Positions 177 through 29,082 of a stretch of 64,000 nt of DNA are shown here, piece after piece. The notes beneath the pieces were generated by a model. The model saw only the letters and a list, made by a program, of their open reading frames with translations. It had not been told where the DNA came from and searched no databases. This DNA comes from an uncultured Chlamydiae bacterium (GTDB taxonomy: Bacteria; Chlamydiota; Chlamydiia; Chlamydiales; Parachlamydiaceae): assembly GCA_963754655.1 (NCBI GenBank), contig CAVWGN010000001.1, positions 1,408,001 to 1,472,000 of the forward strand, given 5' to 3'. Numbering within the stretch: position 1 is the stretch's first letter; each line of letters opens with the position of its first letter. A program made the translations under genes and the position numbers.

Positions 177-1319
177 TTAGCCATTTTCCTGAATGGCAGC
201 CAGAATAATCTCTTGAATGGTTTCATCTGCACATTGAAGAGCCCACCAGCCGCCTTGCTTAAAAGCAGCCAAAACAATCTGTATGTCTTTTTTAAGATTT
301 TCATCTGCATACTGAAGAGCCATGCCATATTGTTTAACGGCAGCCAAGACAATCTCTCGATCTTTTTTAAGGGTTTCATCTGCATATTGAAGAGTATTGC
401 CATCTTCCTGAACGGCAGCCAAGACAATCTCTCGATTTTGCTTTAGGGCTTCATCTGCAAATTGAAGAGCATAGCTATCTGCCTGAACAGCAGCCAAGAC
501 AATTTCTTGATCTTTTTTAAGGCTTTGATCTGCATATTGAAGAGCCCAGCCACTTGGCTGAACGGCCGCCAAGACAATTTCTCGATCTTTTTTAAAGCTT
601 TCATCTATATCAAAAACAGAAGCTCCAAAACAGCGAGCAACTTGAATAAAAACTTTTTTATTATTAAGATTACGAAATTTTTTGAGAGTAGAGATGACAG
701 CTGTTTGTACCTCGTACCATCTTGGATCTTGAGCGCCAGAATAAAATTTTTCGATAAAGTCATTGTTGATAATAGTTAATTTTTCTTCATCACTGCCTGA
801 TATAAGCGAATTTAAAATAGACAATTGATTTTCAGCAATCATCTTGATGCGTTTATTGATGCTATTTTTGCAAATTTTAGGGTTCCATATATAGCGATAC
901 AAAAGAGAAAGAAATAAACTCTTGGATTGAAATAATGTTGAATCAATCATCAATAATTTTTCAAATGTTGTTGTTTCTCTGAGGGCTCGATCAATTAATT
1001 TAAGTTCCTTAGATGTAAAATTCTTCTTCTGATCTGTTGCAATACACTCTGAGGGAGGCATAATAGTGAATCGATCACTGTATTTAATTTGAAAAAGAGT
1101 TTGCAATAATGAGATACAAGGATTTGTCTTAAGAATCCTTTCCCATTTTTTACAGGTGAGTAAAATAGAAGAAATATCGCGTAAAGGTTGACTCTTTTGA
1201 TTGACAATTTGATCAAAAATAATTCCTAATATTTCATTAGGAATTAATATTTCTAAAAAACTTTGGAATTCCTCTGCAGTGTTTCGCATTGTTTGTGAAT
1301 AAAAGTTAGTAGTTTTCAT
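177..1319 (-). CDS. F-box-like / DUF4116-repeat protein, cluster A copy 1
   Basis: N-terminal LIPNEILGIIFDQI...SSILLTCKKW F-box-like motif; C-terminal 25-aa repeats KKDREIVLAAVQQxGxALxYADESL; AAAGGA ribosome-binding site upstream. Confidence 0.85.
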   Translation of the reverse strand: MKTTNFYSQTMRNTAEEFQSFLEILIPNEILGIIFDQIVNQKSQPLRDISSILLTCKKWERILKTNPCISLLQTLFQIKYSDRFTIMPPSECIATDQKKNFTSKELKLIDRALRETTTFEKLLMIDSTLFQSKSLFLSLLYRYIWNPKICKNSINKRIKMIAENQLSILNSLISGSDEEKLTIINNDFIEKFYSGAQDPRWYEVQTAVISTLKKFRNLNNKKVFIQVARCFGASVFDIDESFKKDREIVLAAVQPSGWALQYADQSLKKDQEIVLAAVQADSYALQFADEALKQNREIVLAAVQEDGNTLQYADETLKKDREIVLAAVKQYGMALQYADENLKKDIQIVLAAFKQGGWWALQCADETIQEIILAAIQENG

Positions 1320-1488
1320 AATTATCCTTTTAATTTAATAATTTATTTTAATATTTATTAAAAATTTTTTAGTAAATAATTATAATAACAAACAAATTAA
1401 TTTATAAGTAGAGTTATTATTTTTTTTGTTGCTACTAATTAGAAATCGCTGCTTTTGGGAATGAGCCTCTAAAACAAGAAGGTTCTAG

Positions 1489-1993
1489 CTAGTACTCAAC
1501 CACATTAGTTTTGTGTATTTAGACTCTTCAAAGCCCCGGGGCTAGGGTGTTCATTTTGTGCAAAAAATGAGCTTTATTTTTCACAATAATTGGCATAGTT
1601 GAATAGAAGGTCGCATGTTTATGCCGTCCTTTCAGGACTCGATGTCTTTTTGATAGAACCCAGGCCTCCGCTTCGCTGCGACCTGGGCTGTAACATGACG
1701 GCCCTTCAGGCCTTAACAAAAAGATGATTTAGGGACTATAGAAGAGAGACTTAAACATCTCTTGTTAAGGCCTGAAGGGCCGTCATGTTACAGCCCAGGT
1801 CGCAGCGAAGCGGAGGCCTGGGTTCTATCAAAAAGACATCGAGTCCTGAAAGGACGGCATAAACATGCGACCTTCTATTCAACTATGCCAATTATTGTGA
1901 AAAATAAAGCTCATTTTTTGCACAAAATGAACACCCTAGCCCCGGGGCTTTGAAGCAGTCTAAATACACAAAACTAATGTGGTTGAGTACTAG
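1489..1993. mobile_element. Palindromic MITE/REPIN-like element, family 1 copy 1
   Basis: Arms 1489-1719 and 1762-1993 are near-perfect inverted repeats; ends CTAG-TACTCAACC...GGTTGAGTA-CTAG; paralogous intergenic regions (~4003, ~11322) have a single CTAG and no element. Confidence 0.9.
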
Positions 1994-2176
1994 GTTAGGT
2001 TTAATAGAGATGTCCGAATCTATCACTCATCTATTAACCCAAAAAGTAATCAAGCCAACTGTCAAAAGTGAGCGTGGTAAATTCATAGAATGAGAGAAAG
2101 AACCTGCATGATATTAGAACTAGACTCCTTTCAGTTAATTTAACCGAAAAGGAGTCTAACAAAAAAAATCGTAAGC

Positions 2177-3832
2177 TTAGCCATTTTCCTGAATAGCAGC
2201 CAAGACAATGTCTCGAATGGTTTCGTGTACATAGGAAAGAACACGGTCAGTTTGCTTAACGGCCGTCAAAACAATTTGTAAATCTTTTTTAAAGCTTTCA
2301 TCTGCAGCTGCAAGAGCCCAACCACAGTCCTTAACGGCAGCCAAGACAATCTCTCGATCTTTTTTAAAGATTTCATCTGCAAAGTGAAGAGCTATGCCAC
2401 ATTGCTTAACGGCAGCCAAGACAATCTCTCGATCTTTTTGAAGGCTTTCATGTGCATATTGAAGAGCCCTGCCATCTTGCTGAATGGCAGCTAAGACAAT
2501 GTCACGATCTTTTGTAAAGCTTTCATCCGCATATTTAAGAGCTGTGCCGTAGCACTGAACGGCAGTCAAAACAATCTGTAGAGCTTTTTTAAGACTTTCA
2601 TCTGCCAATTTAAGAGCTAAGCCATTTTGCTGAACGGCCGCTAAGACAATCTCTCGATCTTTTTTAAGGCTTTCATCTGCATATTGAAGAGCATAGCCAT
2701 CTTGCTGAACGGCCGCCAAGACAATCTCTTGGTTTTTTTTAAGGCTTTCATCTGCATATTGAAGAGCATAGCCATTTTGCTGAACGGCCGCCAAGACAAT
2801 TTCTCGATCTTTTTTAAGGCTTTCATCTGCATATTGAAGAGCATAGCCATCTTGCTGAACGGCCGCCAAGACAATCTCTTGGTTTTTTTTAAGGCTTTCA
2901 TCTGCATATTGAAGAGCATAGCCATTTTGCTGAACGGCCGCCAAGACAATCTCTCGATCTTTTTTAAGGCTTTCATCTGCATATTGAAGAGCTTGGAGAC
3001 TAGCCAAGAACATTTCTTGATCTTTTTCAAAGCTTTCACCTGCATATGCAAGAAACCGGACCTTTTGCTGAACGGCAGCCAAGACAATCTCTCGATCTTT
3101 TTTAAAGCTTTCATCTATATCAAAAACAGAAGCTCCGAAACAGCGAGCAACTTGAATAAAAACTTTTTTATCATCGTTAAGATTGCGAAATTTTTTAAGA
3201 GTAGAGACAACAGATTTTTTTATGTCGTAATCTCTTAGATATTTACCGCCCAAATAAAATTTTTCGATAAAGTCATTTTTGATAACGGTTAATTTTTCTT
3301 CATCACTCCCTGATAGAAGAGAATTTAAAATAGACAATTGATTTTCAGCAATCATCTTGATGCGTTGATTGGCGCTGTTTTTGCAAACTTCAGGGTTCCA
3401 TAGATAGTGATGTAAAAGAGAAAGAAATAAACTCTCTGATTGAAATAATTCTGAATTTATCATCAACAATTTTTCAAATGTTTTTCTGCTTCTGATGACT
3501 TGATCAATCAAATTAAGCTCTTGAGATGTAAAATCACTCTTTTGACCATTTATGACGATACACTCCCGGGGAAGAGTAATGGTGAATCGATCACTGTGTG
3601 TCATTTTAAAAAAAGTCTGCAATAATGAGATGCAAGGATTTGTCTGAAGAACCCTTTCCCATTTTTTACAGGTGAGTAAAATAGAAGAAATATCGCGTAA
3701 AGGCTGGCTCTTTTGATTGACAACCTGATCAAAAATAATTTCTAATATCTCATTAGGCATTGTATTTAAGAAGAATTCGAATTCCTCTGAAGTACTTTGC
3801 TTTGTTTGTGAATGAAAGTTAGTAATTTGCAT
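2177..3832 (-). CDS. F-box-like / DUF4116-repeat protein, cluster A copy 2
   Basis: Same architecture, about 12 repeats, ends AIQENG. Confidence 0.85.
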   Translation of the reverse strand: MQITNFHSQTKQSTSEEFEFFLNTMPNEILEIIFDQVVNQKSQPLRDISSILLTCKKWERVLQTNPCISLLQTFFKMTHSDRFTITLPRECIVINGQKSDFTSQELNLIDQVIRSRKTFEKLLMINSELFQSESLFLSLLHHYLWNPEVCKNSANQRIKMIAENQLSILNSLLSGSDEEKLTVIKNDFIEKFYLGGKYLRDYDIKKSVVSTLKKFRNLNDDKKVFIQVARCFGASVFDIDESFKKDREIVLAAVQQKVRFLAYAGESFEKDQEMFLASLQALQYADESLKKDREIVLAAVQQNGYALQYADESLKKNQEIVLAAVQQDGYALQYADESLKKDREIVLAAVQQNGYALQYADESLKKNQEIVLAAVQQDGYALQYADESLKKDREIVLAAVQQNGLALKLADESLKKALQIVLTAVQCYGTALKYADESFTKDRDIVLAAIQQDGRALQYAHESLQKDREIVLAAVKQCGIALHFADEIFKKDREIVLAAVKDCGWALAAADESFKKDLQIVLTAVKQTDRVLSYVHETIRDIVLAAIQENG

Positions 3833-4185
3833 AATTATCCTTTAATTTAATATTTATTATTAATTTTTAGTAAATAGGTATATTAACAAATAAATTGATT
3901 TAGAAGAAGGTTTTTTTATTGCTGTTAATTAGAAATTGCCGCTTTGTCCTATTTAGAAATAGCCCCTTTTGGAAATGAATTTCTAGAACAGGAAGATTCT
4001 AACTAGGGAAGCTTTAATAGTAATGTTTGAATCTATCAATCATCTAGTAACTAAAAAGTGATCAAGCCAACTGTCAAAAAGTGAGTATGGTAAATTCAAG
4101 GAATGAGAGAAAGCCTCTGCAGGTTGTTATAACCAAACTCCTTTCGTTCAAGTGACCGAAAGGAGAATAACAAACAATCATAAGC

Positions 4186-5751
4186 TTAGCCATTTTCCTG
4201 AATGGCAGCCAAAACAATCTTTTGAATGGTTTTATCTGCATAGCGAAGAGCATCGGCCTTTTGCTTAACGGCAGCCAAAACAATCTATAGATCTTTTTTA
4301 AGGGTTTCATCTGCATATTCAAGATTCCCGCCATTCTTCTTAACGGCCGCTAAGACAATTTCTCGATCTTTTTTAAGGGTTTCATCTGCAAATTGAAGAT
4401 TAAAGCCTTTTTTCTGAACGGCCGCCAAGACAATCTCTTGAATGGTTTCATCTACATAGCGAAGAGCTCTACCATTTTACTGAACAGCAGCCAAGACAAT
4501 CTGTAGATCTTTTTTAAGGCTTTCATGTGCATATTGAAGAGCATGGCCATTTTTCTGAACGGCAGCTAAGACAATCTTTTGATCTTTTTGAAGGTTTACA
4601 TCTGCATATTTAAGAGATATGCCCTGTTGCTGAACGGCTGCCAAGACAATGTCACGATCTTTTTTAAGGGTTTCATCCGCGTAGAGAAGAGCAGTGCCAT
4701 TTTGCTGAACGGCCGCCAAGACAATCTCTCGATCTTTTTTAAGGCTTTCATCTGCATATTGAAGAGCATAGCCATTTTGCTGAACGGCCGCCAAGACAAT
4801 CTCTGGATCCTTTTTAAGGCTTTTATCTGCATATTGAAGAGCATAGCCATTGTGCTGAACGGCCGCCAAGACAACCTCTCGATCTTTTTTAATGCTTTCA
4901 TCTGCAAATTGAAGAGCTTGGAGGCTAGCCAAGACCATCTCTTTTTCAAAGCTTTGACTTGCACATGCAAGAAACCGGACCTTTTGCTGAACGGCAGCCA
5001 AGACAATCTCCCGATCTTTTTTAAAGTCTTCATCTATATCAAAAACAGAAGCTCCGAAACAGCGCGCAACTTGAATAAAAACTTTTTTATCATCGTTAAG
5101 ATTGCGAAATTTTTTAAGAGTAGAGATGACAGATGTTTTTACGTAGTACCCGCTTGGATATTTAGCGCTCAAATAAAATTTTTCGATAAAGTCATTTTTG
5201 ATAATGGTTAATTTTTCTTCATCGCTCCCTGATAGAAGAGAATTTAAAATAGACAATTGATTTTCAGCAATCATCTTGATGCGTTGATTGGCGCTGTTTT
5301 TGCAAACTTCAGGCTCCCATAGATAGTGATGTAAAAGAGAAAGAAATAAACTCTCTGATTGAAATAATTCTGAATTTATCATTAACAATTTTTCAAATGT
5401 TTTTCTTTCTCTGATGACTTGATCAATCAAATTAAGCTCTTGAGATGTAAAATCACTCTTTTGACCATTTGTGACGATACACTCCCGAGGAAGAGTAATA
5501 GTGAATCGATCACTGTGTGTCATTTTAAAAAAAGTCTGCAATAATGAGATGAAAGGATTTGTCTGAAGAACACTTTCCCATTTTTTACAGGTAAGTAAAA
5601 TAGAAGAAATATCGCTTAAAGACTAGCTCTTTTGATTGACAATCTGATCAAAAATAATTTTTAATATTTCATTAGGCATTGTATTTAAGAAGAATTCGAA
5701 TTCCTCTGAAGTGCTTTGCTTTGTTTGTGAATGAAAGTTAGTAATTTGCAT
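4186..5751 (-). pseudogene. F-box-like / DUF4116-repeat pseudogene, cluster A copy 3
   Basis: ATG at 5751 (MQITNFHSQT) in frame with the AIQENG stop at 4186; in-frame stops at 5623-5625, 4477-4479 and 4285-4287. Confidence 0.85.
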
Positions 5752-6124: not shown

Positions 6125-7645
6125 TTAGCCATTTTCCTGAATGGCAGCCAAGACAATCTCTTGAATGGTTTCATGTGCATAAGGGAGAGTATCGACATTT
6201 TGCTTCACGGCGGCTAAGACAATTTGTAGATCTTTTTTAAAGCCTTCATCTGCAAATGCGAGAGCCAAGCCAAACTGCTTGACGGCAGCTAAGACAATTG
6301 CTCGATCTTTTTTAAGAGTTTCATCTACATATTGAAGAGCATAGCCATTTTGATGAACTGCAGCCAAGACAATCTCTCGATCTTTTTTAAGGCTTTCATC
6401 TGCATATTCAAGGGCCCAGCCATCTTGTTGAACGGCCGCCAAAACAATCTCTCGATCTTTTTTAAGGCTTTCATCCGCATATCGAAGAGCTATTCCAGTT
6501 TGCTTAATAGCAGCCAAAGCAATCTCTCGATCTTTTTTAAGGCTTTTATCTGCATATTGAAGAGCATAGCCATCTTGCTGAACGGCAGCCAAGACAATCT
6601 CTCGATCTTTTTTAAGGCTTTCATCTGCATATTCAAGGGCCCAGCCATCTTGTTGAACGGCAGCCAAGACAATCTCTCGATCTTTTTTAAGGGTTTCATC
6701 TGCATATTTAAGAGCCCAGCCATTTTGCTGAACCGCAACCAAGACAATCTCTCGATCTTTTTTAAGGGTTTCATCTGCATATTGAAGAGCCCAGCCATTT
6801 TGCTGAACCGCAATTAAGACAATCTCTCGATCTTTTTTAAGGGTTTCATCTACCAATTTAAGAGCTAAGCCTTCTTGCTTAACGGCAGCCAAAACAATTT
6901 CTCGATCTTTTTTTAAGCTTTCATGTATATCAAAAATGGAAGCTCCGAAACAGCGAGCAACTTGAATAAATTTTTTTTTATCGTTAAGGTTGAGGAATTT
7001 TTTAAGAGTAGAGATGATAGATGTGTGTATATCATGTAATCTTTGATGGTGCGCGCCCGAATAAAATTTTTCGATAAGGTCATTTTGAATAACGGTTAAT
7101 TTTTCTTCATCACTCCCTGATAGAAGAGAATTTAAAATAGACAATTGATTTTCAGCAATCATCTTGATGCGTTGATTGGCGCTGTTTTTGCAAACTTCAG
7201 GGTTCCATGAATGGCGATCCAAAAGAGAAAGAAATAAACTCTTTGGGTGAAATAATGCTGAATCCATCATCAACAATTTTTCAAATGCTGTTATTTCTCT
7301 ACAGGCTGGATCAATCAATTTAAGTTCCTTAGATGTAAAATCCTTCTTTTGGCTTTGGTTTGTCGCGATACACTCTTGAGGAGGCGTAATAGTAGTGAAT
7401 CGATCACTGTGTGTAATTTGAAAAAGAGTCTGCAATAATGAAATGCAAGGATTTGCTTTAAGAATCCCTTCCCACCTTTTACAGGTAAGTAAAATAGAAG
7501 AAATATCGACTAAAGGCTGTCTTTGTTGATTGACAATCTGATCAAAAATAATATCCAATATCTCATTAGGTATTATATTTGAAAATAATTGGAATTCCTC
7601 CGAAGTGCTTTGCCTTATGTGTGAATGAAAGTTAGTAATTTGCAT
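6125..7645 (-). CDS. F-box-like / DUF4116-repeat protein, cluster A copy 4
   Basis: Same architecture, IIPNEILDIIFDQI motif, ends AIQENG. Confidence 0.85.
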   Translation of the reverse strand: MQITNFHSHIRQSTSEEFQLFSNIIPNEILDIIFDQIVNQQRQPLVDISSILLTCKRWEGILKANPCISLLQTLFQITHSDRFTTITPPQECIATNQSQKKDFTSKELKLIDPACREITAFEKLLMMDSALFHPKSLFLSLLDRHSWNPEVCKNSANQRIKMIAENQLSILNSLLSGSDEEKLTVIQNDLIEKFYSGAHHQRLHDIHTSIISTLKKFLNLNDKKKFIQVARCFGASIFDIHESLKKDREIVLAAVKQEGLALKLVDETLKKDREIVLIAVQQNGWALQYADETLKKDREIVLVAVQQNGWALKYADETLKKDREIVLAAVQQDGWALEYADESLKKDREIVLAAVQQDGYALQYADKSLKKDREIALAAIKQTGIALRYADESLKKDREIVLAAVQQDGWALEYADESLKKDREIVLAAVHQNGYALQYVDETLKKDRAIVLAAVKQFGLALAFADEGFKKDLQIVLAAVKQNVDTLPYAHETIQEIVLAAIQENG

Positions 7646-8020: not shown

Positions 8021-9391
8021 TTAGCCATTTTCCTGAATAGCAGCCAAGACAATCTCTTGAATGGTTTCATCTGCATAGCGAAGAGCGTCGCCTCGTTGCT
8101 GAACGGCAGCCAAGACAATCTCTCGATCTTTTTTAAAGCTTTCATCTACATACATAAGAGCCCAGCCATTTTGCTTAACGGCAGCTAAGACAATCTCTCG
8201 ATCTTTTTTAAAGCTTTCATCTGCAAATTGAAGAGCCCAGCCATTTTTCTTAACGGCAGCCAAGACAATCTCTCGATCTTTTTTAAAAGGTTTATCTGCA
8301 TGTTGAAGAACACTGCCATGTTGCTGAACAGCAGCCAAGACAATCTCTCGATCTTTTTGAAGGCTTTCATGTGCATATTGAAGAGCATAGCCTCTTTGCT
8401 GAACGGCAGCCAAGACAATCTCTCGATCTTTTTTAAGGGTTTCATCTGCATATTCAAGGGCCCAGCCATCTTGCTGAACGGCAGCCAAGACAATCTCTCG
8501 ATCTTTTTTAAGGGTTTCATCTGCATATTGAAGAGCATAGCCACTTTGCTGAACCGCAACCAAGACAATCTCTCGATCTTTTTTAAGGGTTTCATCTACC
8601 AATTTAAGAGCTAAGCCTTCTTGCTTAACGGCAGCCAAAACAATTTCTCGATCTTTTTTAAAGCTTTCATGTATTCCAAAAATGGAAGCTCCGAAACAGC
8701 GAGCAACTTGAATAAAAACTTTTTTATCGTTAAGGTTGAGGAATTTTTTAAGAGTAGAGATGATAGATGTGTGTATATCATATAATCTTTGATGGTGCGT
8801 GCCCGAATAAAATTTTTCGATAAGGTCATTTTGAATAACGGTTAATTTTTCTTCATCACTCCCTGATAGAAGAGAATTTAAAATAGACAATTGATTTTCA
8901 GCAATCATCTTGATGCGTTGATTGGCGCTGTTTTTGCAAACTTCAGGGTTCCATGAATGGCGATCCAAAAGAGAAAGAAATAAACTCTTTGGGTGAAATA
9001 ATGCTGAATCCATCATCAACAATTTTTCAAATGCTGTTATTTCTCTACAGGCTGGATCAATCAATTTAAGTTCCTTAGATGTAAAATCCTTCTTTTGGCT
9101 TTGGTTTGTCGCGATACACTCTTGAGGAGGCGTAATAGTAGTGAATCGATCACTGTGTGTAATTTGAAAAAGAGTCTGCAATAATGAAATGCAAGGATTT
9201 GCTTTAAGAATCCCTTCCCACCTTTTACAGGTAAGTAAAATAGAAGAAATATCGCCTAAAGGCTGTCTTTGTTGATTGACAATCTGATCAAAAATAATAT
9301 CCAATATCTCATTAGGTATTATATTTGAAAATAATTGGAATTCCTCCGAAGTGCTTTGCCTTGTGTGTGAATGAAAGTTAGTAATTTGCAT
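8021..9391 (-). CDS. F-box-like / DUF4116-repeat protein, cluster A copy 5
   Basis: N-terminal half nearly identical to copy 4; different repeat series. Confidence 0.85.
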   Translation of the reverse strand: MQITNFHSHTRQSTSEEFQLFSNIIPNEILDIIFDQIVNQQRQPLGDISSILLTCKRWEGILKANPCISLLQTLFQITHSDRFTTITPPQECIATNQSQKKDFTSKELKLIDPACREITAFEKLLMMDSALFHPKSLFLSLLDRHSWNPEVCKNSANQRIKMIAENQLSILNSLLSGSDEEKLTVIQNDLIEKFYSGTHHQRLYDIHTSIISTLKKFLNLNDKKVFIQVARCFGASIFGIHESFKKDREIVLAAVKQEGLALKLVDETLKKDREIVLVAVQQSGYALQYADETLKKDREIVLAAVQQDGWALEYADETLKKDREIVLAAVQQRGYALQYAHESLQKDREIVLAAVQQHGSVLQHADKPFKKDREIVLAAVKKNGWALQFADESFKKDREIVLAAVKQNGWALMYVDESFKKDREIVLAAVQQRGDALRYADETIQEIVLAAIQENG

Positions 9392-9765: not shown

Positions 9766-11132
9766 TTAGCCATTTTCCTGAATGGCAGCCAAGACAATCT
9801 CTTGAATGGTTTCATGTGCATAAGGGAGAGTATCGACATTTTGCTTCACGGCGGCTAAGACAATTTGTAGATCTTTTTTAAAGCCTTCATCTGCAAATGC
9901 GAGAGCCAAGCCAAACTGCTTGACGGCAGCTAAGACAATCGCTCGATCTTTTTAAGAGTTTCATCTGCAAATTGAAGAGCATTGCCATGTTGCTGAACGG
10001 CAGCCAAGACAATCTCTCGATCTTTTTTAAGGCTTTCATCTGCAAATTGAAGAGCATAGCCATGTTGCTTAACGGCAGCCAAAACAATCTCTCGATCTTT
10101 TTTAAAGCCTTCATCTGCAAATGCGAGAGCCAAGCCAAACTGCTTAACGGCAGCTAAGACAATCGCTCGATCTTTTTTAAGAGTTTCATCTACATATCGA
10201 AGAGCATAGCCATTTTGATGAACTGCAGCCAAGACAATCTCTCGATCTTTTTTAAGGCTTTCATCTGCAAATTGAAGAGCATAGCCATGTTGCTTAACGG
10301 CAGCCAAAACAATTTCTCGATCTTTTTTAAGGCTTTCATCCGCATATCGAAGAGCTATTCCATTTTTCTGAACGGCAGCCAAGACAATCTCTCGATCTTT
10401 TTTAAAGCCTTCATCTATATCAAAAACAGAAGCTCCGAAATAGCGAGCAACTTGAATAAAAATTTTTTTATCATCGTTAAGATTGCGAAATTTTTTAAGA
10501 GTAGACAGGAGAGATGTTTTTCCCTCGTGCCATCTTTGAGCTTGACCGGCAAAATAAAATCTTTCAATAAACTCATTTTTGATAACGGTTAATTTTTCTT
10601 CATCACTCCCTGATATAAGAGAATTTAAAATAGACAATTGATTTTCAGCAATCATCCGGATGCGCTGATTGGCGCTGTTTTTGCAAATTTCGGGTTTCCA
10701 TATATAGCGATGCAAAAGAGAAAGAAATAAACTCTTTGAGTGAAATAATTCTGAATCAATCATCAATAATTTTTCAAATGTTCTTCTTTCTCCGATGGCT
10801 CGATCAATCAATTTAAGCTCTTGAGATGTAAAATCACTCTTTTGACCATTTGTGACGATACACTCTGGGGGAGGCGTAATAGTGAATCGATCACTGTGTG
10901 TCATTTTAAAAAAAGTCTGCAATAATGAGATGAAAGGATTTGTCTGAAGAACACTTTCCCATTTTTTACAGGTAAATAAAATAGAAGAAATATCGCTTAA
11001 AGACTGGCTCTTTTGATAGACAATCTGATCAAAAATAATTTTTAATATTTCATTAGGCATTGTATTTAAGAAGAATTCGAATTCCTCTGAAGTGCTTTGC
11101 CTTGTTTGTGAATGAAAGTTAGTAATTTGCAT
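9766..11132 (-). pseudogene. F-box-like / DUF4116-repeat gene with -1 frameshift, cluster A copy 6
   Basis: T5 at 9949-9953 where the other repeats have T6; the ORF ends early at 9930 and the normal AIQENG end lies at 9766 in another frame (a sequencing error is possible). Confidence 0.75.
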
Positions 11133-11505: not shown

Positions 11506-11859
11506 TTAGCCATTTTCCTGAATAGCAGCCAAGACAATCTCTTGAATGGTTTCATCTGCATAGCGAAGAGCGTCGCCTAGTTGCTGAACGGCTGCCAAGA
11601 CAATCTCTAGATCTTTTCTAAGGTTTTCATCTGCAAATTGAAGAGCATTGCCATGTTGCTGAACAGCAGCTAAGACAATCTCTCGATCTTTTTTAAAGCT
11701 TTCATCTGCATATTCAAGAAAATAGCCCTCTTTCTGAACGGCAGCCAAGACAAGCTCTCGATCTTTTTTAAGGCTTTCATCTGCAAATCGAAAAGCCAAG
11801 CCCTCTTTCTGAACAGCAGTCAAGACAACCTCTTTATCTTTTAAGGCTTTCATCTGCAA
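11506..11859 (-). pseudogene. 3' fragment of a DUF4116-repeat gene
   Basis: Only about 4.5 repeats plus the AIQENG end; fused directly to the truncated 3' dyad of the 11884 gene. Confidence 0.85.
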
Positions 11860-16399: not shown

Positions 16400-16658
16400 T
16401 TTTATACCTTTATTATTTTGTTTATTAGTCGGTAATAAAATTATATAATAAAGATTATTAAATATCAATTGATATAAAATAAATTAAAGATTAAATTTAA
16501 TTTAAGGAATCTTATTGATTATACAAAAGAAATAGAAGAAACCGCTGTCATGAGACTCGTTGACATAAGTTTTTGCCTATTAGGATTAGGATGCTGAACG
16601 GTGTATACTCTTGATCTTTTTATTAAACCTTCGTTAAACTATCTTCAAAATAAGAAGG

Positions 16659-18662: not shown

Positions 18663-20069
18663 TTACAAATGCCAGACCGAGTATAATGCCAGATCGAGTA
18701 TATAGTTTTTGGGAGTTTGTAGTAGTGAAGTTAAGGCAAGTTCAATTCGAAGAGCTAAACTCACATATTCACGAGCTCGGTCATTTTGCTTAAGGGCCAC
18801 CAAGACAATTTCTCGATCTTTTTTAAGGCTTTCATCTGCATATTCAAGAGCTGTGCCATCTTGGTTAACGGCAGCCAAGACAATTTCTCGATCTTTTTTA
18901 AGACTTTCATCTGCACATTGAAGAGCTTCCGCACTTTGCTTAATGGCAGCCAAGGCAATTTCTCGATTTTTTTTAAGGCTGGCATCTGCATATTCAAGAG
19001 CCCAGCCATCTTGCTTAACGGCAGCCAAGACAATTTCTCGATCTTTTTTAAGGCTTTTACCTGCATAGCCAAGAGCATCGCCATCTTGCTGAACGGCTGC
19101 CAAAACAATCTCTCGATCTTTTCTAAGGCTTGCATCTGCATAGAGAAGAGCCCAGCCAACTTGGTTAACAGCAGCCAAGACAATTTCTCGATCTTTTGTA
19201 AGGCTTTCATCTACAAATTGGAGAGCCTTGCCATTTTGCTGAACGGCAGCCAAGATAATCTCTCGATCATTTTTAAGACTTTTATCTGCATAGACAAGAG
19301 CATAACCATCTTGGTTAACGGCAGCTAAGACAATCTCTCGATCCTTTTTAAGGCTTTCATGTATATCAAAAACAGCATATCCAAAATAGCGCGCAACTTG
19401 AATAAAAATTTTTTTATCGTTAAAATTGGGAAACTTTTTAAGGGTGGAGATGACGGATGTTTTTGCCTGCCGCCAGGTTGCACTTCGACTCGCGCCTCTA
19501 TAAAGTTTGGCAATAGAATCATTCTCGATAACCGTTAATCTTTGTTCATCCGTGCCTAATATAAGAGAATTCAAAATAGACAACTGCTCTTCGGCCACAA
19601 GCTGGATATTTTTATTGGCGCTAATTTTGCAAACGTCAAGATCCCAGGAGTAGCGATCCAAAAGAGAAAGAAATAAACTCTTTGGGTAAAATAATTTTGA
19701 ATCAACCATTAATAATTTTTTAAAGTTTTTTTTAAAGCAGACTCGATCCATCAATTTAAGTTCTTGAGATGTAAAAGACTCATTATCAGCTGTGAGGCAT
19801 GCTTGCAGGTGGCTAATAGTGGTAGAGGGTTGATGGCTACCTTTAAGTTGAAAAAGAACCTGCACCAATGAAATGCAAGGATTCTTTTGAAGAACGCCTT
19901 TCCATTTTTTACAAGTGAATAAAATAGAAGAAATATGTTTTGAAGAGTAGTTCGGGTTGACAACTTGATCAAAAATAATTCCTAATACCTCATTAGGAAT
20001 TAGTGTATCTAACAAAGAGTCGTTTGAAGTTTTGTGCATTGTTTGCAAATGAGAATGTATATTTTGCAT
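18663..20069 (-). CDS. F-box-like / DUF4116-repeat protein, cluster B copy 1
   Basis: LIPNEVLGIIFDQV motif, repeats, cluster-B tail LALRIELALTSLLQTPKNYILDLALYSVWHL. Confidence 0.85.
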   Translation of the reverse strand: MQNIHSHLQTMHKTSNDSLLDTLIPNEVLGIIFDQVVNPNYSSKHISSILFTCKKWKGVLQKNPCISLVQVLFQLKGSHQPSTTISHLQACLTADNESFTSQELKLMDRVCFKKNFKKLLMVDSKLFYPKSLFLSLLDRYSWDLDVCKISANKNIQLVAEEQLSILNSLILGTDEQRLTVIENDSIAKLYRGASRSATWRQAKTSVISTLKKFPNFNDKKIFIQVARYFGYAVFDIHESLKKDREIVLAAVNQDGYALVYADKSLKNDREIILAAVQQNGKALQFVDESLTKDREIVLAAVNQVGWALLYADASLRKDREIVLAAVQQDGDALGYAGKSLKKDREIVLAAVKQDGWALEYADASLKKNREIALAAIKQSAEALQCADESLKKDREIVLAAVNQDGTALEYADESLKKDREIVLVALKQNDRAREYVSLALRIELALTSLLQTPKNYILDLALYSVWHL

Positions 20070-20285: not shown

Positions 20286-21764
20286 TTACAAATGCCAGAC
20301 CGAATATAATGCCAGATCGGATATATAGTTTTTTGGAGTTTGTAGTAGTGAAGTTAAGGCAATTTCAATTCGAAGAGCTAAACTCACATATTCAAGAACT
20401 CGGTCATTTTGCTTAACGGCCGCCAAGACAATGTCTCGATCTTTTTTAAGGCTTTCATCTGCATACTTAAGAGTCAGGCCATCTTGCTTAACGGCAGCCA
20501 AGACAATGTCTCGATCTTTTTTAAGGCTTGCATCTGCATAGAAAAGAGCCCAGCCATCTTGCTTAACGGCCGCTAAGGCAATCTCTCGATCTTTTTTAAG
20601 GCTTTCATCTGCATATTCAAGAGCGCTGCCTCTTTGCTGAACGGCAGCCAAGACAATTTCTCGATCTTTTTTAAGGCTTGCATCTGCATATTTAATAACA
20701 TAGCCATTTTGCTGAATGGCAGCCAAGACAATTTCTTGATCTTTTTTAAGGCTTTCATTTGCATATTTAAGAGCCCAGCCATCTTGCTGAACAGCAGCCA
20801 AGACAATTTCTCGATTTTTTTTAAGGCTTACATCTGCATATTCAAGAGCTAAGCCCTCTTGCTTAACGGCAGCCAAGACAATTTCTCGATCTTTTTTAAG
20901 GCTTTTACCTGCATAGGCAAGAGCACCTCCTGTTTGCTGAACGGCTGCTAAAACAATCTCTCGATCTTTTCTAAGGCTTATATCTGCATAGAAAAGAGCC
21001 AAGCCAACTTGGTTAACGGCAGCTAAGATAATCTCTCGATCTTTTCTAAAACTTTTAATATCAAAAACAGCCTGTCCAAAACAGCGAACAACCTGAGTAA
21101 AAATTTTTTTATCGTTAAAATTGGGAAATTTTTTAAGTGTGGAGATAACAGATGTTTTTGCCAGCTCCCAGGTTGCACTTAAACTCGCGCCTCTATAAAG
21201 TTTTGCGATAGAATCATTTTCCATAACCGTTAATCTTTGTTCATCCGTGCCGAATATAAGAGAATCTAAAATAGACAACTGCTCTTTAGCCACAAGCTGA
21301 ATGTTTTTATTGGCGCTCTTTTTGCAAAATGCAGGATTCCATGGGTAGCGATCCAAAAGAGAAAGAAATAAACTCTTCGGGTGAAATAATTTTGAATCAA
21401 CCATTAATAATTGTTCAAATCTTTGGTCATCGCTTGCTAGATCGATCAGTTTAAGTTCCTGAGATGTAAAAGACTCATTCTCAGTTGTGAGGCATTCTTG
21501 CAGGTGGCTAATAGTGGTAGAGGATTGATGGCTACCTTTAAGTTGAAAAAGAACCTGCACCAATGAAATGCAACGATTCTTTTGGAGAACGCTTTTCCAT
21601 TTTTTACAGGTAAATAAAATAGAAGAAATATGTTTTGAAGAGTAGTCGGGGTTGACAACTCGATCAAAAATAATGCCTAATACCTCATTTGGAATTAGTG
21701 TATCTAACAAAGAGTCGTTTGAAGCTTTGTATATTGTTTGCAAAGGAGACTGTATATTTTGCAT
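20286..21764 (-). CDS. F-box-like / DUF4116-repeat protein, cluster B copy 2
   Basis: Same architecture, MQNIQSPL subtype. Confidence 0.85.
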   Translation of the reverse strand: MQNIQSPLQTIYKASNDSLLDTLIPNEVLGIIFDRVVNPDYSSKHISSILFTCKKWKSVLQKNRCISLVQVLFQLKGSHQSSTTISHLQECLTTENESFTSQELKLIDLASDDQRFEQLLMVDSKLFHPKSLFLSLLDRYPWNPAFCKKSANKNIQLVAKEQLSILDSLIFGTDEQRLTVMENDSIAKLYRGASLSATWELAKTSVISTLKKFPNFNDKKIFTQVVRCFGQAVFDIKSFRKDREIILAAVNQVGLALFYADISLRKDREIVLAAVQQTGGALAYAGKSLKKDREIVLAAVKQEGLALEYADVSLKKNREIVLAAVQQDGWALKYANESLKKDQEIVLAAIQQNGYVIKYADASLKKDREIVLAAVQQRGSALEYADESLKKDREIALAAVKQDGWALFYADASLKKDRDIVLAAVKQDGLTLKYADESLKKDRDIVLAAVKQNDRVLEYVSLALRIEIALTSLLQTPKNYISDLALYSVWHL

Positions 21765-22912: not shown

Positions 22913-24244
22913 TTACAAATGCCCGACCGAGTATAATGCCAGATCGAATATATAGTTTCTTGAATTTTGTAGTAGTAAAGTTAAAGCAAGGTCAATTTGA
23001 AGCGCTAAACTCGCATATTGATATCGAAGAGTCAAGCCATATTGCTTAACGGCAGCCCAGACAATGTCTCGATCTTTTTTAAGGCTGTCATCTGCATATT
23101 CACGAGCTTTGCCATCTTGCTGAACGGCAGCCAAGACAATCTCTCGATCTTTTTTAAGGCTTTCATCTGCATATTGAAGAGCTTTGCCATTTTGCTGAAC
23201 GGCTGCTAAAACAATCTCTCGATCTTTTTTAAGGCTTTCATCTGCATATTGAAGAGCATTGCCATGTTCCTGAACAGCAGCCAAAACAATTTCTAGATCT
23301 TTTTTAAGACTTTCATCTGCATAGTGAAGAGCATAGCCTCTTTGCTGAACGGCAGCCAAGACAATCTCTCGATCTTTTTTAAGGCTTTCATCTGCATATT
23401 CAAGGGCCCAGCCATCTTGCTGAACGGCAGCCAAGACAATCTCTCGATCTTTTTTAAGGCTTTCATCTGCATTTCGAAGAGTCCTACCCCTTCGCTGAAC
23501 GCAAGCTAAGACAATCTCTCGATCTTTTTTAACGCGTTCATGTATATCAAAAACAGAATCTCCAAAACAGCGCGCAGCTTGAATAAAAATTTTTTTATCC
23601 TTAAAATTGGAAAAATTTTTAAGTGTGGAGATGACGAATCTTTCTGCTTTCCACCAGGTGGTACCTCGAATCGCGCCTATATAAACTTTTGTGATAGAAT
23701 TATTTGCGATAACCGTTAATCTTTGCTGCTTAGGACCTGATACAAGAGAATTTAAAATAGACAATTGCTCTTTAGCCACTTGATGAATCCTCTTATTGGC
23801 GCTCCATTGGCAAACTTCAGGATCCCATGAATAGTGATCCAAAAGACAAAGAAACAAACTCTTCGGGTGAAATAATTTTGAATCAGCCATTAATAATTTT
23901 TTAAAGGTTCGATCACAGCAGAATCGATCAATCAATTTAAATTCTTGAGAGGTAAAATGCTTCTTTTGGTAAGTTATCATACAATCCTGTAGCGTAATAG
24001 CAGATCGATTACTGTTTTTAAGCTGAAAAAGGGCCTGCACCAATAAAATACAAGGATTTTTTTGGAGAACACTTTTCCATTTTTTACAAGTGAGTAAAAT
24101 AGAAGAAAAATGCCTTGAAGAGCAGCTTAAGTTGATAACTTGATCAAAAACAACTCCTAATATCTCATTAGGAATTAATGTATCTAACAAAGAGTCGCTT
24201 GAAGTTTTTTGCATTGTTTGCAAATGAGAATGTATATTTTGCAT
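22913..24244 (-). CDS. F-box-like / DUF4116-repeat protein, cluster B copy 3
   Basis: Same architecture, MQNIHSHL subtype. Confidence 0.85.
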   Translation of the reverse strand: MQNIHSHLQTMQKTSSDSLLDTLIPNEILGVVFDQVINLSCSSRHFSSILLTCKKWKSVLQKNPCILLVQALFQLKNSNRSAITLQDCMITYQKKHFTSQEFKLIDRFCCDRTFKKLLMADSKLFHPKSLFLCLLDHYSWDPEVCQWSANKRIHQVAKEQLSILNSLVSGPKQQRLTVIANNSITKVYIGAIRGTTWWKAERFVISTLKNFSNFKDKKIFIQAARCFGDSVFDIHERVKKDREIVLACVQRRGRTLRNADESLKKDREIVLAAVQQDGWALEYADESLKKDREIVLAAVQQRGYALHYADESLKKDLEIVLAAVQEHGNALQYADESLKKDREIVLAAVQQNGKALQYADESLKKDREIVLAAVQQDGKAREYADDSLKKDRDIVWAAVKQYGLTLRYQYASLALQIDLALTLLLQNSRNYIFDLALYSVGHL

Positions 24245-24460: not shown

Positions 24461-26098
24461 TTACAAATGCCAGACCGAATATAATGCCAGATCGGATATA
24501 TAGTTTTTTGGAGTTTGTAGTAGTGAAGTTAAGGCAAGTTCAATTCGAAGAGCTAAACTCACATATTCAAGAGCTCGGTCATTTTGCTTAAGGGCCGCCA
24601 AGACAATTTCTCGATTTTTTTTAAGGCTTACATCTGCATATTCAAGAGCTAAGCCCTCTTGCTTAACGGCAGCCAAGACAATTTCTCGATCTTTTTTAAG
24701 ACTTTTATCTGCATATTGAAGAGCTCCCGCACTTTGCTTAATGGCAGCCAAGACGATCTCTCGATCTTTTTTAAGGCTTTTATGTGCATAGCGAAGAGCT
24801 TCCCAGCCCCAGCCAACTTGGTTAACGGCTGCCAAAACAATCTCTCGATCTTTTCTAAGGCTTGCATCTGCATATTCAAGAGCCAAGCCAACTTGGTTAA
24901 CGGCAGCCAAGACAATTTCTCGATCTTTTTTAAGGCTTTTACCTGCATATTGAAGACCATTGCCCTCTTGCTGAACGGCTGCCAAAACAATCTCTCGATC
25001 TTTTCTAAGGCTTGCATCTGCATAGAAAAGAGCATCGCCACTTTGCTTAACGGCAGCCAAGACAATTTCTCGATCTTTTTTAAGGCTTTCATCTGCATAG
25101 ACAAGAGCCGTACCATCTTGGTTAACGGCCGCCAAGACAATCTCTTGATCTTTTTTAAGGCTTTCATCTACAAATTGGAGAGCGTTGCCATTTTGCTTAA
25201 CGGCCGCCAAGACAATCTCTTGATCTTTTTTAAGGCTTCCATCTGCATATCGAAGAGCTTGGCCATTTTGCTTAACGGCAGCCAAGATAATATCTCGATC
25301 TTTTTTAAGGCTTTCATCTGCATTTCGAAGAGTCCTACCCCTTCGCTGAACGCAAGCTAAGACAATCTCTCGATCCTTTTTAAGGCTTTCATGTATATCA
25401 AAAACAGAGCGTCCAAAACAGCGCGCAACCTGAATAAAAATTTTTTTATCGTTAAAATTGGGAAACTTTTTAAGGGTGGAGATGACGGATGTTTTTGCCT
25501 GCCGCCAGGTTGCACTTCGACTCGCGCCTCTATAAAGTTTGGCAATAGAATCATTCTCGATAACCGTTAATCTTTGTTCATCCGTGCCGAATATGAGAGA
25601 ATTCAAAATAGACAACTGCTCTTCAGCCACAAGCTGGATATTTTTATTGGCGCTAATTGTGCAAAATTCAGGATTCCATGGGCAGCGATCCAAAAGAGAA
25701 AGAAATAAACTTTTCGGGTGAAATAATTTTGAATCCACCATTAACAATTGTTCAAATCTTTGGTTATCATTTGCTAGATCGATTAGTTTAAGTTCCTGAG
25801 ATGTAAAAGACTCATTCTCAGTTGTGAGGCATTCTTGCAGGTGGCTAATAGTAGAGGGGTGATGGCTACCGTTAAGTTGAAAAAGAGCCTGCACCAATGA
25901 AATACAAGGATTCTTTTGGAGAACGCTTTTCCATTTTTTACAGGTAAATAAAATAGAAGAAATATGTTTTGAAGAGTAGTCAGGGTTGACAACTCGATCA
26001 AAAATAATGCCTAATACCTCATTTGGAATTAGTGTATCTAACAAAGAGTCGTTTGAAGCTTTGTATATTGTTTGCAAAGGAGACTGTATATTTTGCAT
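24461..26098 (-). CDS. F-box-like / DUF4116-repeat protein, cluster B copy 4
   Basis: Same architecture, MQNIQSPL subtype, about 11 repeats. Confidence 0.85.
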   Translation of the reverse strand: MQNIQSPLQTIYKASNDSLLDTLIPNEVLGIIFDRVVNPDYSSKHISSILFTCKKWKSVLQKNPCISLVQALFQLNGSHHPSTISHLQECLTTENESFTSQELKLIDLANDNQRFEQLLMVDSKLFHPKSLFLSLLDRCPWNPEFCTISANKNIQLVAEEQLSILNSLIFGTDEQRLTVIENDSIAKLYRGASRSATWRQAKTSVISTLKKFPNFNDKKIFIQVARCFGRSVFDIHESLKKDREIVLACVQRRGRTLRNADESLKKDRDIILAAVKQNGQALRYADGSLKKDQEIVLAAVKQNGNALQFVDESLKKDQEIVLAAVNQDGTALVYADESLKKDREIVLAAVKQSGDALFYADASLRKDREIVLAAVQQEGNGLQYAGKSLKKDREIVLAAVNQVGLALEYADASLRKDREIVLAAVNQVGWGWEALRYAHKSLKKDREIVLAAIKQSAGALQYADKSLKKDREIVLAAVKQEGLALEYADVSLKKNREIVLAALKQNDRALEYVSLALRIELALTSLLQTPKNYISDLALYSVWHL

Positions 26099-26151
26099 AA
26101 TTATCCTGTGAATAAACTATTAATTTTACTATTTAAATTTAATTTATAATT

Positions 26152-26686: not shown

Positions 26687-26885
26687 TTTATAATTTTATT
26701 AGATATTATAATATAAGTTTTATGGTTATAATTCAATGTATTAATTCTAATTATATTAACACAATTTATAAATTTTTAAACTGCTCTAACCATCAAATTT
26801 TAATCGAACAGTAACACATTCTGGAAGAGATGGCTTTAATGGGAAAAGAATAGTTCCAGAGAAAAAAGTAAGCAAAACTTATTTT

Positions 26886-27268
26886 TTATGCCTGAGTTTT
26901 TCCGACCCAAATGGCAAAAGCTGTGGCATATTGCTGACAATGACTAAGCGAAACATGGAGGGTGGTGAGATCGCCAAATAATTCTTGTGCAAATGGCGAG
27001 AAAATAGCGATTGGTTTACCTGTGGGATGATTTCGAATCTTAATATCTAACCAAGTCAGTCCTTGGAAAAATCCTGTTCCCAAGGTTTTTACAATGGCTT
27101 CTTTAGCTGCAAAGCGGCCTGCTAAGTGAAGAGCAGGCTCTTTGCGTTTGAGACAATAGTCCTGCTCATAGGAGGTAAATACGCGATTGAGAAATCGTTG
27201 TGAATAATGTGTAAGAACTGCTTGAATGCGGGCAGTTTCCACAATGTCATTACCAATTCTCAAATCAT
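26886..27268 (-). pseudogene. acpS: Duplicate acpS, frameshifted just after the start codon
   Basis: Near-identical to 31190-31573 but 1 nt shorter (ATGATTTGAGAATT versus ATGATTTTGGGAATT). Confidence 0.85.
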
Positions 27269-27600
27269 AAAGCCAGAAAATTTTTATGTGTCTTAAGCTC
27301 TTGATTATTATTTGAAAAATCATCCTCTGTCAACAGACTTCCCTTTTCTGCTGCATTGCAGAAAATCATTCTACTCGAAGAAGTGTGTTTAACAGACAAG
27401 ACATAAGCTTTAATTGTTTCCCCAATAAATTCAGCTACTTCATTGACAACTACCATTGTTCCATCTTCCAGGTAACCCACACCTTGACGAGCCTCTTTAC
27501 CATAGCGTTGAATCTTGTTGTTAATCGATTCGTCTGCTTGTATAATAGGTTTGAGGGCATTGGAAAGCATATGAATGTTGATAATTCTTACACCTTCAAT
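27265..27600 (-). pseudogene. Duplicated 3' fragment of the PIN/TRAM gene
   Basis: Matches 31570-31906; similarity stops at CCTTCAAT. Confidence 0.85.
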
Positions 27601-27669
27601 CCAAATATTCTCTCATATAAACTATTTGACAAACTGTAGAAAGTTTGATCGGTCAAGCGAAAAAAAAAC

Positions 27670-29082
27670 TTACAAATGCCAGACCGAGTGTAATGCCAGA
27701 TCGAGTATATAGTTTTTTGAAGTTTGTAGTAGTAGAGTTAGGGCACGTTCAATTCGAAAATCTAAACTCGCATATTCAAGAGCCTTGCTATCTTGCTGAA
27801 TAGCAGCTAAGACAATCTCTCGATCGTTTGTAAGGCTTTCATCTGCATATTGAAGAGCTAAGCCCTTTTGCTTAACGGCTGCCAAGACAATGTCTCGATC
27901 CTTTTTAAGGCTTTTAGCTGCCCAGTAAAGCATATCGCCATCTTGCTTAATGGCAGCCAAGACAATTTCTCGATCTTTTTTAAAGCTTGCATCTGCATAG
28001 AGAAAAGCCAAGAAATTTTGCTTAACGGCAGCTAAGACAATCTCTCGATCTTTTTTAAGGCTTTTATCTGCATAATCAAGAGCCCAGCCCCTTTGCTGAA
28101 TGGCAGCCCAGACAATCTCTCGATCTTTTTGAAAGCTTTTATCTGCATATTTAAGAGATAAGCCCTCTTGCTGAACAGCAGCCCCGACAATTTCTCGATC
28201 TTTTTTAAGGCTTTCATCTGCATATTTAAAAGCCCCGCCATTTTGCTGAACAGCAGCCAAGACAATCTCTCGATCTTTTTTAAAGCTTTCATCTACCAAC
28301 TCAAGAGCCTCTCCATTTTGCTGAACAGCAGCCAAAACAATCTCTCGATCTTTTTTAAGGCTTTCATGTATATCAAAAACAGCATCTCCAAAACAGTGCG
28401 CAACTTGAATGAAAAATTTTTTATCGTTAAAATTGGGAAATTTTTTAAGGGTGGAGATGACAGATGTTTTTGCCTGCCGCCAGGTTGCACTTCGACTTCC
28501 GCCCCTATAAAGTTTTGTGATAGAATCATTTTCGATAACCGTTAATTTTTGTTCATCCGTGCCTAATATAAGAGAATTCAGAATAGACAACTGCTCTTCA
28601 GCCACAAGCTGGATGTTTTTATTGGCGCTCTTTTTGCAAACGTCAAAATCCCAGGAGTAATGATCCAAAAGAGAAAGAAATAAACTCTTTGGGTGAAATA
28701 ATCTTGAATCAACCATTAGTAATTTTTTAAAGTTTTCTTTAAAGTAGACTTGATCAATCAATTTAAATTCTTGAGATGTAAAAGACTTCTTTTGTCCATC
28801 AGTTGTGAGGCATTCTTGGAGGTGCTTAATAGTGTTAGGGCGTTGATGGCTACCTTTAAGTTGAAAAAGAGCCTGCACCAATGAAATGCAAGGGTTCTTT
28901 TGGAGAACGCTTTTCCATTTTTTACAAGTGAGTAAAATAGAAAAGGTGTCATTTAAAGATTGGCTTTGGTTGACAACTTGATCAAAAACAATTCCTAATA
29001 CCTCCTTAGGAATTAGTGTATCTAACAAAGAGTCGTTTGAAGTTTTGTGTATTGTTTGCAAATGAGAATGTATATTTTGCAT
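27670..29082 (-). CDS. F-box-like / DUF4116-repeat protein, cluster B copy 5
   Basis: Same architecture, MQNIHSHL subtype. Confidence 0.85.
   Translation of the reverse strand: MQNIHSHLQTIHKTSNDSLLDTLIPKEVLGIVFDQVVNQSQSLNDTFSILLTCKKWKSVLQKNPCISLVQALFQLKGSHQRPNTIKHLQECLTTDGQKKSFTSQEFKLIDQVYFKENFKKLLMVDSRLFHPKSLFLSLLDHYSWDFDVCKKSANKNIQLVAEEQLSILNSLILGTDEQKLTVIENDSITKLYRGGSRSATWRQAKTSVISTLKKFPNFNDKKFFIQVAHCFGDAVFDIHESLKKDREIVLAAVQQNGEALELVDESFKKDREIVLAAVQQNGGAFKYADESLKKDREIVGAAVQQEGLSLKYADKSFQKDREIVWAAIQQRGWALDYADKSLKKDREIVLAAVKQNFLAFLYADASFKKDREIVLAAIKQDGDMLYWAAKSLKKDRDIVLAAVKQKGLALQYADESLTNDREIVLAAIQQDSKALEYASLDFRIERALTLLLQTSKNYILDLALHSVWHL

Follow-up and report, generated by a model that had tools for sequence, protein, structure and literature searches.

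Tandem DUF4116-repeat genes with probable divergent F-box motifs in a Parachlamydiaceae genome: candidate receptors of host ubiquitin ligases

Positions 177-29082 of a 64-kb stretch of DNA (the window; C1:1408001-1472000 of a 3.16-Mb, two-contig genome) from an uncultured Chlamydiae bacterium of the family Parachlamydiaceae carry 14 paralogous loci, whose products join an F-box-like N-terminus to tandem DUF4116 repeats. The question raised by this array is what so many versions of one protein might be for, and whether they could form a diversified library of ubiquitin-ligase adaptors, as had been proposed in a sequence-only reading of the same DNA. On the evidence presented here, the balance tips modestly towards the view that the intact copies are exported counterfeit substrate receptors of SCF (Skp1-Cullin-F-box) ubiquitin ligases, in which secretion, Skp1 binding, target recruitment and ubiquitination are all steps that we infer.

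Architecture and copies of the array

Three parts can be recognized in the array proteins. A leader of about 25 residues, unstructured and rich in Ser, Thr, Asn and Gln, is followed by a putative divergent F-box (residues ~24-75), with the motif IPNE[IV]L.IIFDQ...SILLTCKKW at residues ~24-60. The conserved helical domain that comes next extends to ~235 and contains a family-specific linker domain (residues ~100-235), while the rest of the protein is a DUF4116 alpha-solenoid of 4-12 or more units. The repeat counts (4-12 per protein, each unit exactly 25 residues) were obtained with a strict pattern and are lower bounds; about 5-12 repeats of 25 aa had been given in the earlier reading.

No leucine-rich repeat (LRR), tetratricopeptide repeat (TPR) or DUF294 match at E <=0.01, and no ankyrin match, was obtained in any of the 14 loci by the Pfam scan. 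The two tail classes described previously, AIQENG-type and ...DLALYSVWHL-type, were recovered; the tails end in ..AIQENG or ..SVWHL and have no cysteine four residues from the end, that is, no C-terminal cysteine-based lipidation motif by the CaaX definition. Each copy is preceded by its own conserved AAAGGAT element, resembling a ribosome-binding site, and by an AT-rich, promoter-like 5' region, and these 5' regions group by subfamily. Given such a conserved 5' region for every copy, the genes of the array look real.

The open reading frames (ORFs) of at least 100 aa in positions 1-29082 (n = 19) were scanned for known families. PF13475 (DUF4116) was matched in 14 of the 19, with E values from 7.9e-41 to 2.8e-148, and all 14 loci lie above its curated cut-off of 24.9 bits (137.8-481.8 bits, 2-9 matched stretches each). 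A tblastn search with the first 255 residues of two copies as queries located 13 full N-terminal modules in the window. On the minus strand the modules start at 1319, 3832, 5751, 7645, 9391, 11132, 13257, 20069, 21764, 24244, 26098 and 29082, the sole plus-strand module starts at 13931, and none was found beyond 29082 in the rest of the window. The count of 14 paralogous loci is thereby borne out, with PF13475 in every one of them and a full N-terminal module in 13. The individual loci are as follows.

177..1319, minus strand: locus 1, intact, 380 aa; F-box-like motif (18.7 bits, below cut-off), middle domain, at least 4 DUF4116 units, AIQENG tail; PF13475 E 2.3e-50
2177..3832, minus strand: locus 2, intact, 551 aa, 12 units, AIQENG tail; PF13475 E 4.5e-125; F-box-like 19.9 bits in the genome scan (C1:1411644)
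4186..5751, minus strand: locus 3, a 521-codon pseudogene; its frame is interrupted prematurely at codons 43, 425 and 489, and the natural stop comes after the AIQENG tail
4477-5541, minus strand: open part of locus 3; PF13475 E 1.5e-90
6125..7645, minus strand: locus 4, intact, 506 aa, 10 units, AIQENG tail; PF13475 E 2.8e-148; N-terminal module modelled
8021..9391, minus strand: locus 5, intact, 456 aa, 8 units, AIQENG tail; PF13475 E 1.5e-142; protein of the full-length model
9766..11132, minus strand: locus 6, with a frameshift where the A6 run at an L-K-K-D junction is one A short; ORF stop at 9930, remaining units and AIQENG tail in another frame
11506..11859, minus strand: C-terminal fragment, 117 aa, repeats and AIQENG tail without N-terminal module, in frame and 8 codons after the stop of locus 7; PF13475 E 7.9e-41
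11884..13257, minus strand: locus 7, intact, 457 aa, 8 units, AIQDNG tail; PF13475 E 2.7e-100
13931..15265, plus strand: locus 8, alone on the plus strand, 444 aa with 8 units; it ends atypically in ..KQIINF, and remnants of the repeat lie in other frames; PF13475 E 6e-86; long tree branch
18663..20069, minus strand: locus 9, intact, 468 aa, 8 units, ..DLALYSVWHL tail; PF13475 E 5.9e-137
20286..21764, minus strand: locus 10, intact, 492 aa, 9 units, ..SVWHL tail; PF13475 E 1.2e-90
22913..24244, minus strand: locus 11, intact, 443 aa, at least 6 units, ..SVGHL tail; PF13475 E 1.2e-72
24461..26098, minus strand: locus 12, intact, 545 aa, 10 units, ..SVWHL tail; PF13475 E 3.4e-143; F-box 18.1 bits, below cut-off
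27670..29082, minus strand: locus 13, intact, 470 aa, 8 units, ..SVWHL tail; PF13475 E 4.4e-80

The 14 loci thus comprise ten clearly intact copies, a copy with an odd tail, a copy with three premature stops, a copy with a -1 frameshift and a C-terminal fragment. The number of intact copies, previously put at 11, is given here as 10 because the plus-strand copy at 13931-15265 ends atypically. The pseudogene at 4186-5751 had been recognized in the sequence-only reading, although with one premature stop instead of three, and the frameshifted copy at 9766-11132 was likewise found again, one A being absent from its A6 run.

The N-terminal motif and the DUF4116 repeat

The core pattern of F-boxes reads L-P-x-E-[IL]-L-x-x-I-[FL] ... 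[VC]-x-K-x-W, and such a pattern is present near the N-terminus of the array proteins, in register with canonical F-boxes. In all seven segments tested, the sole N-terminal Pfam matches are F-box-like and F-box, for which the curated cut-offs are 24.3 bits (PF12937) and 20.5 bits (PF00646), respectively. Three or four paralogs exceed these values: members of the same family at C1:2028799 and C1:2035679 reach 26.1 and 25.7 bits with the F-box-like model, and that at C1:124279 reaches 20.8 bits with the F-box model. When residues 15-82 of the family (83 paralogs) were compared by hhalign with 13 canonical, non-family F-boxes of the same genome, the alignment obtained a probability of 90.5% (P 1.4e-6) with 31 columns in register, as against 0.9% for a middle-domain segment of equal length used as a control. 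In an alignment of 29 paralogs sharing 50-73% identity, P26, L30, F34, D35, S50, L52, T54, C55 and W58 are invariant or at least 90% conserved. The nearest clusters in the atlas are F-box proteins as well (0.86 and 0.85), these values lying below the 0.9 mark and serving as a lead only.

From these comparisons, the N-terminal motif is very probably homologous to F-boxes, if in divergent form. The F-box-like motif that had been placed at residues ~24-62 is therefore upheld as a motif (here ~24-60), its homology being carried by the paralogs above the cut-offs and by the hhalign result. The window copies themselves score below the curated cut-offs, and the F-box fold was not recovered with confidence.

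Two further sets of F-box-like genes unrelated to the array are encoded in the same genome. A 430-aa protein at 45817-47109 (minus strand) has an F-box-like motif at its extreme N-terminus (24.4 bits in the genome scan, 20.7 bits by hmmscan of the called ORF); no further known domain was found in it, and it is a candidate for another host-directed F-box protein. A second F-box family consists of seven tandem genes of 463-471 aa at C1:2072209-2083658, with F-box scores of 19.5-23.1 bits, at or near the Pfam cut-off.

As for the repeat, an alpha-solenoid had already been predicted for DUF4116 by a contact-based model (PMC8078820). The full-length AlphaFold2 (AF2) model of the locus 5 protein (456 aa, alignment of 18 sequences) has a mean predicted local distance difference test score (pLDDT) of 75.8, the repeat region at ~240-455 reaching 90-98, and each 25-residue unit is folded into three short helices, e.g. 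248-257, 259-264 and 267-271. DUF4116 is thus modelled with confidence as a regular alpha-solenoid. No solved fold was assigned to the full-length model, which shows weak resemblance to armadillo, ankyrin and designed repeats: the best Foldseek match (E 8.4e-3; designed, armadillo and HEAT repeats) and the best match of a wide VIA-align search (Z 6.8, root-mean-square deviation 8.1, 194 aligned residues; armadillo/DARPin fusions) both lie below the noise level for helical repeats.

Variation between units is concentrated at few places. Among 473 in-frame units taken from 94 frames, the per-position entropy amounts to 2.72 bits at position 15, 3.75 at position 17 and 2.88 at position 20, and does not exceed 1.6 bits elsewhere. 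In the numbering of the model, position 15 is located in a turn, and positions 17 and 20 are one turn apart on the second helix, which is why the three residues would line one face of the solenoid. The ratio of nonsynonymous to synonymous substitution (dN/dS, omega) was estimated by the Nei-Gojobori method over 391 nearest-repeat pairs, a crude pairing and no true orthology alignment. For the hypervariable codons, dN is 0.236 and omega 1.10 (bootstrap confidence interval 0.87-1.36), and for the scaffold codons 0.059 and 0.54 (0.50-0.61), so that dN at the hypervariable codons is four times that of the scaffold. The diversified library suggested earlier is thus supported in part: each repeat has three hypervariable positions, but with a confidence interval of 0.87-1.36 at these positions, positive selection is not demonstrated. 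Binding of nucleic acids in the manner of PUF, TALE or PPR proteins was set aside, since the unit consensus is net acidic (K2, K3 and R5 versus D4, E6, D15, D23 and E24).

Copies in the genome and in relatives

The array is one part of a much larger family. A genome-wide hidden Markov model search with profiles of the window copies matched the F-box segment in 103 stop-to-stop frames, the middle domain in 103, and both in 96; at a stricter score, 94 loci in 26 clusters remain, and the overall estimate is about 94-100 loci. The family frames total 143,136 nt, or 4.53% of the genome. The largest cluster, with 18 loci, is the present array, which begins upstream of the window. In a quick maximum-likelihood tree of 83 N-terminal modules, modules from one chromosomal cluster group together: the cluster label changes 9 times, compared with 40.4 times when labels are shuffled (0 of 200 shuffles gave as low a number), and the window copies fall into two separately expanded clades plus the long-branch plus-strand copy. 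The copies arose through local tandem duplication with ongoing loss, i.e. by birth and death. At the L-K-K-D junction, the coding sequence of the repeat contains a run of adenines, with A6 in 323, A7 in 12 and A8 in 20 of the 473 in-frame units.

Outside this genome, the N-terminal module is scarce. It had no match in 40 relatives, which represent three further species of the genus, 21 further genera within the family and 16 further families within the order; the single match to the module query, in genome G027, covers the first repeat only. In a collection of 5.8 billion clusters, 44 of the 45 module matches come from this same chromosome, and among 1.84 billion clusters 19 representatives match the module. 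The same three-part order is kept in the distant representatives P0053, P0054, P0060 and P0061, while P0052 is a divergent paralog from the same genome. The only named relative of the module outside the genome is P0061, a DUF4116 protein of Candidatus Protochlamydia phocaeensis (E 5.7e-06), in which the parts follow in the same order and the F-box-like match of 18.3 bits is below the cut-off. Compared with the array, this protein is very divergent; it appeared in the search as one cluster representative and no large family, and its public annotation mentions DUF4116 only and no F-box. A pattern scan of named genomes matched 63 stretches and confirmed none, the source genome possibly having been left out of that scan. 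Judged from these searches, the N-terminal module is nearly private to this genome.

DUF4116 itself is more widely distributed, being present in 15 of the 40 relatives and in 76 of the 300 scored genomes of a phylum sample. The source genome is far ahead in this sample, with 1017 first-look DUF4116 candidates and 374 in the next genome. Of 24 complete DUF4116 proteins from relatives, 3 score above a curated F-box or F-box-like cut-off and 1 just below. Two very large proteins of a relative from the same family combine C-terminal DUF4116 repeats with other heads: a PARP catalytic domain (38.5 bits) in L042 (G009:C17), and a nucleotidyltransferase of the DUF294/SidM_N type (31.6 and 28.3 bits) in L041 (G009:C168). 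In 14 of the 18 DUF4116 proteins without such domains, the N-terminus is hydrophobic and resembles a membrane anchor or a signal, which suggests membrane-anchored display of the repeats. A conserved short N-terminus with one or two hydrophobic segments, e.g. ..DYIP.VSTVTNLV..FQK....LLIPVLGNI.., is shared by the DUF4116 proteins L034-L039 (G004), L051 (G014) and L046, L048 and L049 (G020).

Since F-box, PARP, nucleotidyltransferase and membrane-anchor-like heads all occur among the relatives, DUF4116 can be regarded, on sequence comparison, as a portable module carried by several putatively host-directed heads. The pairing of F-box and DUF4116, with canonical F-boxes in the relatives, has arisen, or persists, in several chlamydial families. 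Taken together with the entropy profile, the observations support the view that DUF4116 behaves as a portable helical repeat with a variable surface.

The genome bears several chlamydia-like markers, namely a CT351-family outer-membrane protein gene (52257-54494), four TLC nucleotide transporters and one SctV-type export gate (754.5 bits). The ORFs of the array region that do not belong to the family include, in addition to a weak TRAM match, the following genes; the remaining neighbours in the window are listed with them.

15821-16468, minus strand: ORF without Pfam/NCBIfam family, 215 aa, flanking trxB
16659-17618: trxB, thioredoxin reductase (Pfam scan)
17588-18445, plus strand: ORF without Pfam/NCBIfam family, 285 aa, flanking trxB
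26886-27323: 4'-phosphopantetheinyl transferase, ACPS-type (Pfam scan)
29396-30806, plus strand: IS607-family transposase (200.7 bits) and TnpB RNA-guided endonuclease gene, adjoining the last array copy
33828-34808, minus strand: 326-aa protein ending in a macro domain, matched by ADP-ribose-binding / O-acetyl-ADP-ribose deacetylase models at up to 124.3 bits but below their cut-offs; N-terminal 120 residues without family
56165-57862, minus strand: 565-aa HEAT-repeat protein (HEAT_2, 74.9 bits)

Proposed mechanism, its rivals and related systems

If the intact copies are SCF receptors, the leader would act as a type III signal and the proteins would be exported into the protist host. There, the F-box would dock onto host Skp1-Cullin, the family-specific helical domain would serve as a rigid linker, and the DUF4116 solenoid would recruit host proteins via a stripe of three variable residues per unit (15, 17 and 20), local tandem duplication and ongoing loss generating the copies. 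Residues 2-25 of the leader are 42.6% Ser, Thr, Asn or Gln, which corresponds to the 97th percentile of 1418 background ORFs, and are poor in basic residues, and a hydrophobic, signal-like run was found in none of 83 copies. Functional type III signals were demonstrated for analogous chlamydial F-box families in a surrogate secretion assay (PMC4209131). With an SctV gene present and a leader of this composition, export via a type III system is plausible for the array proteins as well. The Skp1 partner would have to be that of the host, since PF01466 (Skp1) was matched in 0 of the 300 phylum genomes; the family was matched in no control genome either.

Several results weigh against this mechanism. 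The F-box scores of the window copies (12.1-18.7 bits) stay under the Pfam cut-offs, and an insertion of 5-6 residues separates the first two F-box helices when compared with the canonical profile. In both AF2 models, helices are predicted at 27-38, 45-54, 58-62 and 66-75 with pLDDT below 50 over the F-box stretch; a Foldseek search with the N-terminal model returned nothing (best E 2.6), and a search of the PDB with two module profiles, at E up to 10, gave no match even though the PDB includes F-box structures. The variable positions of the repeat are unconstrained, their omega of 1.10 fitting neutrality as well as diversifying selection, and the scaffold omega of 0.54 indicates weak constraint. 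Moreover, 3-4 of the 14 window loci are broken, and 21 of the 94 genome-wide family frames end in an out-of-frame repeat reading. Twelve of these 21 have one common tail (..FSKMAGLFNLQI-like) and therefore probably inherit a single old event. The poly-A frameshifts may represent slippage, fixed mutation or assembly error, which are indistinguishable without reads.

These points can be read in other ways. The N-terminus might be an F-box descendant that no longer recruits a working SCF complex, in which case the proteins would be plain binders, decoys, mimics of host DUF4116 proteins, or Skp1 sponges damping host SCF. Such a reading would agree with the sub-threshold scores, the loop insertion and the failure of AF2 and Foldseek to recover the F-box fold, as well as with the PARP, nucleotidyltransferase and membrane-anchor heads of the relatives, which show that the repeat needs no F-box. 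We nevertheless consider it unlikely, as P26, E28, L30, F34, L52, C55 and W58 have remained invariant or nearly so in 29 paralogs at 50-73% identity, arguing for continued constraint, and the register with canonical F-boxes has been retained.

That the copy number is mainly non-adaptive, with tandem duplication and the drift of a small intracellular population leaving most copies redundant or decaying, would in turn fit the two omega values, the broken loci and out-of-frame ends, and the failure to find the module in three congeneric species or in 21 further genera of the family. An IS607/TnpB element adjoins the array, and genomic drift has been proposed for the expanded chlamydial F-box families already published (PMC4209131). 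However, 10 of the 14 window loci keep long open frames together with conserved 5' regions, and a scaffold that is strongly conserved while three defined positions vary is unlike uniform decay, so that this explanation seems quite improbable; besides, it accounts for copy number and not for the role of a single copy, and is compatible with the SCF-receptor reading. It is highly improbable that the proteins stay within the cell and act inside or on the bacterium: F-box homology has no known bacterial partner, no Skp1 was found in the 300 phylum genomes, none of 83 copies has a Sec-type signal, and related families were type III substrates in the surrogate assay (PMC4209131).

The SCF-receptor reading places the array among systems of a kind already described. 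According to Domman et al. 2014 (PMC4209131), Neochlamydia harbours expanded F-box families, NEX1a combining the F-box with LRR and NEX2 with TPR/DUF294; the paper also describes BTB families, more than 370 F-box proteins in the phylum, and birth-and-death evolution. Like NEX1a and NEX2, which reach tens to more than 100 copies per genome, form tandem clusters and undergo lineage-specific birth and death, the array family is large, clustered and turning over, and like them it would consist of type III effectors hijacking host ubiquitination, as proposed for these families in the same paper. The array family does not belong to NEX1 (LRR) or NEX2 (TPR and DUF294), because no LRR or TPR was matched in the window copies, the repeat here being DUF4116. 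In the main text and supplement file 2 of that paper, to which the search was confined with supplement file 1 outside it, DUF4116 does not occur, and a full-text literature search found no chlamydial work on DUF4116/PF13475, including its pairing with F-boxes.

In AnkB of Legionella pneumophila, the product of a single gene, ankyrin repeats are combined with a C-terminal farnesylation motif, and delivery takes place through a type IV system. AnkB is an effector of an amoeba-adapted intracellular bacterium and a eukaryotic-type F-box protein that exploits the host ubiquitin-proteasome system (PMC11323580). The array proteins resemble AnkB in that an F-box head is joined to a helical-repeat body, and differ from it in having about 100 paralogs, DUF4116 repeats and no C-terminal lipidation cysteine; their likely route is type III. 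Thus, as far as the sequences can tell, the array family stands outside NEX1, NEX2 and the AnkB type, with the same design in another gene family. Compared with other Pfam DUF4116 (PF13475) proteins, a family without assigned function, the array proteins carry the repeat in a defined arrangement after an F-box, and three hypervariable positions have been mapped in its unit. While expanded F-box effectors in chlamydiae of amoebae have been published as a kind of system (PMC4209131), what is new here is DUF4116 as the repeat partner and the nearly genome-private N-terminal module.

A bolder version of the SCF-receptor reading, which must be called speculative and rather doubtful, would see DUF4116 as a compact programmable recognition scaffold of three helices in 25 residues, with the three hypervariable residues of each unit making up a binding stripe, and the family as a library of some 100 SCF receptor mimics built by this one chlamydia, each for a different host protein, with the A6-A8 runs adding slippage-driven switching or truncation of members. 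Were it true, a function would be provided for DUF4116 across protists, giant viruses, phages and bacteria.

To our knowledge, no gene families in Chlamydiae are larger than those of the expanded F-box effectors, for which LRR and TPR are the only partners described. The array adds DUF4116 as a third F-box partner at a similar scale, with ~94-100 loci occupying 4.5% of one genome, and, as a second and independent example, allows the birth and death of effector genes to be studied. A repeat that is still uncharacterised, although 76 of the 300 sampled phylum genomes contain it, is placed in a testable setting behind an F-box and with a mapped variable surface, by which the question of what DUF4116 binds is made directly approachable.

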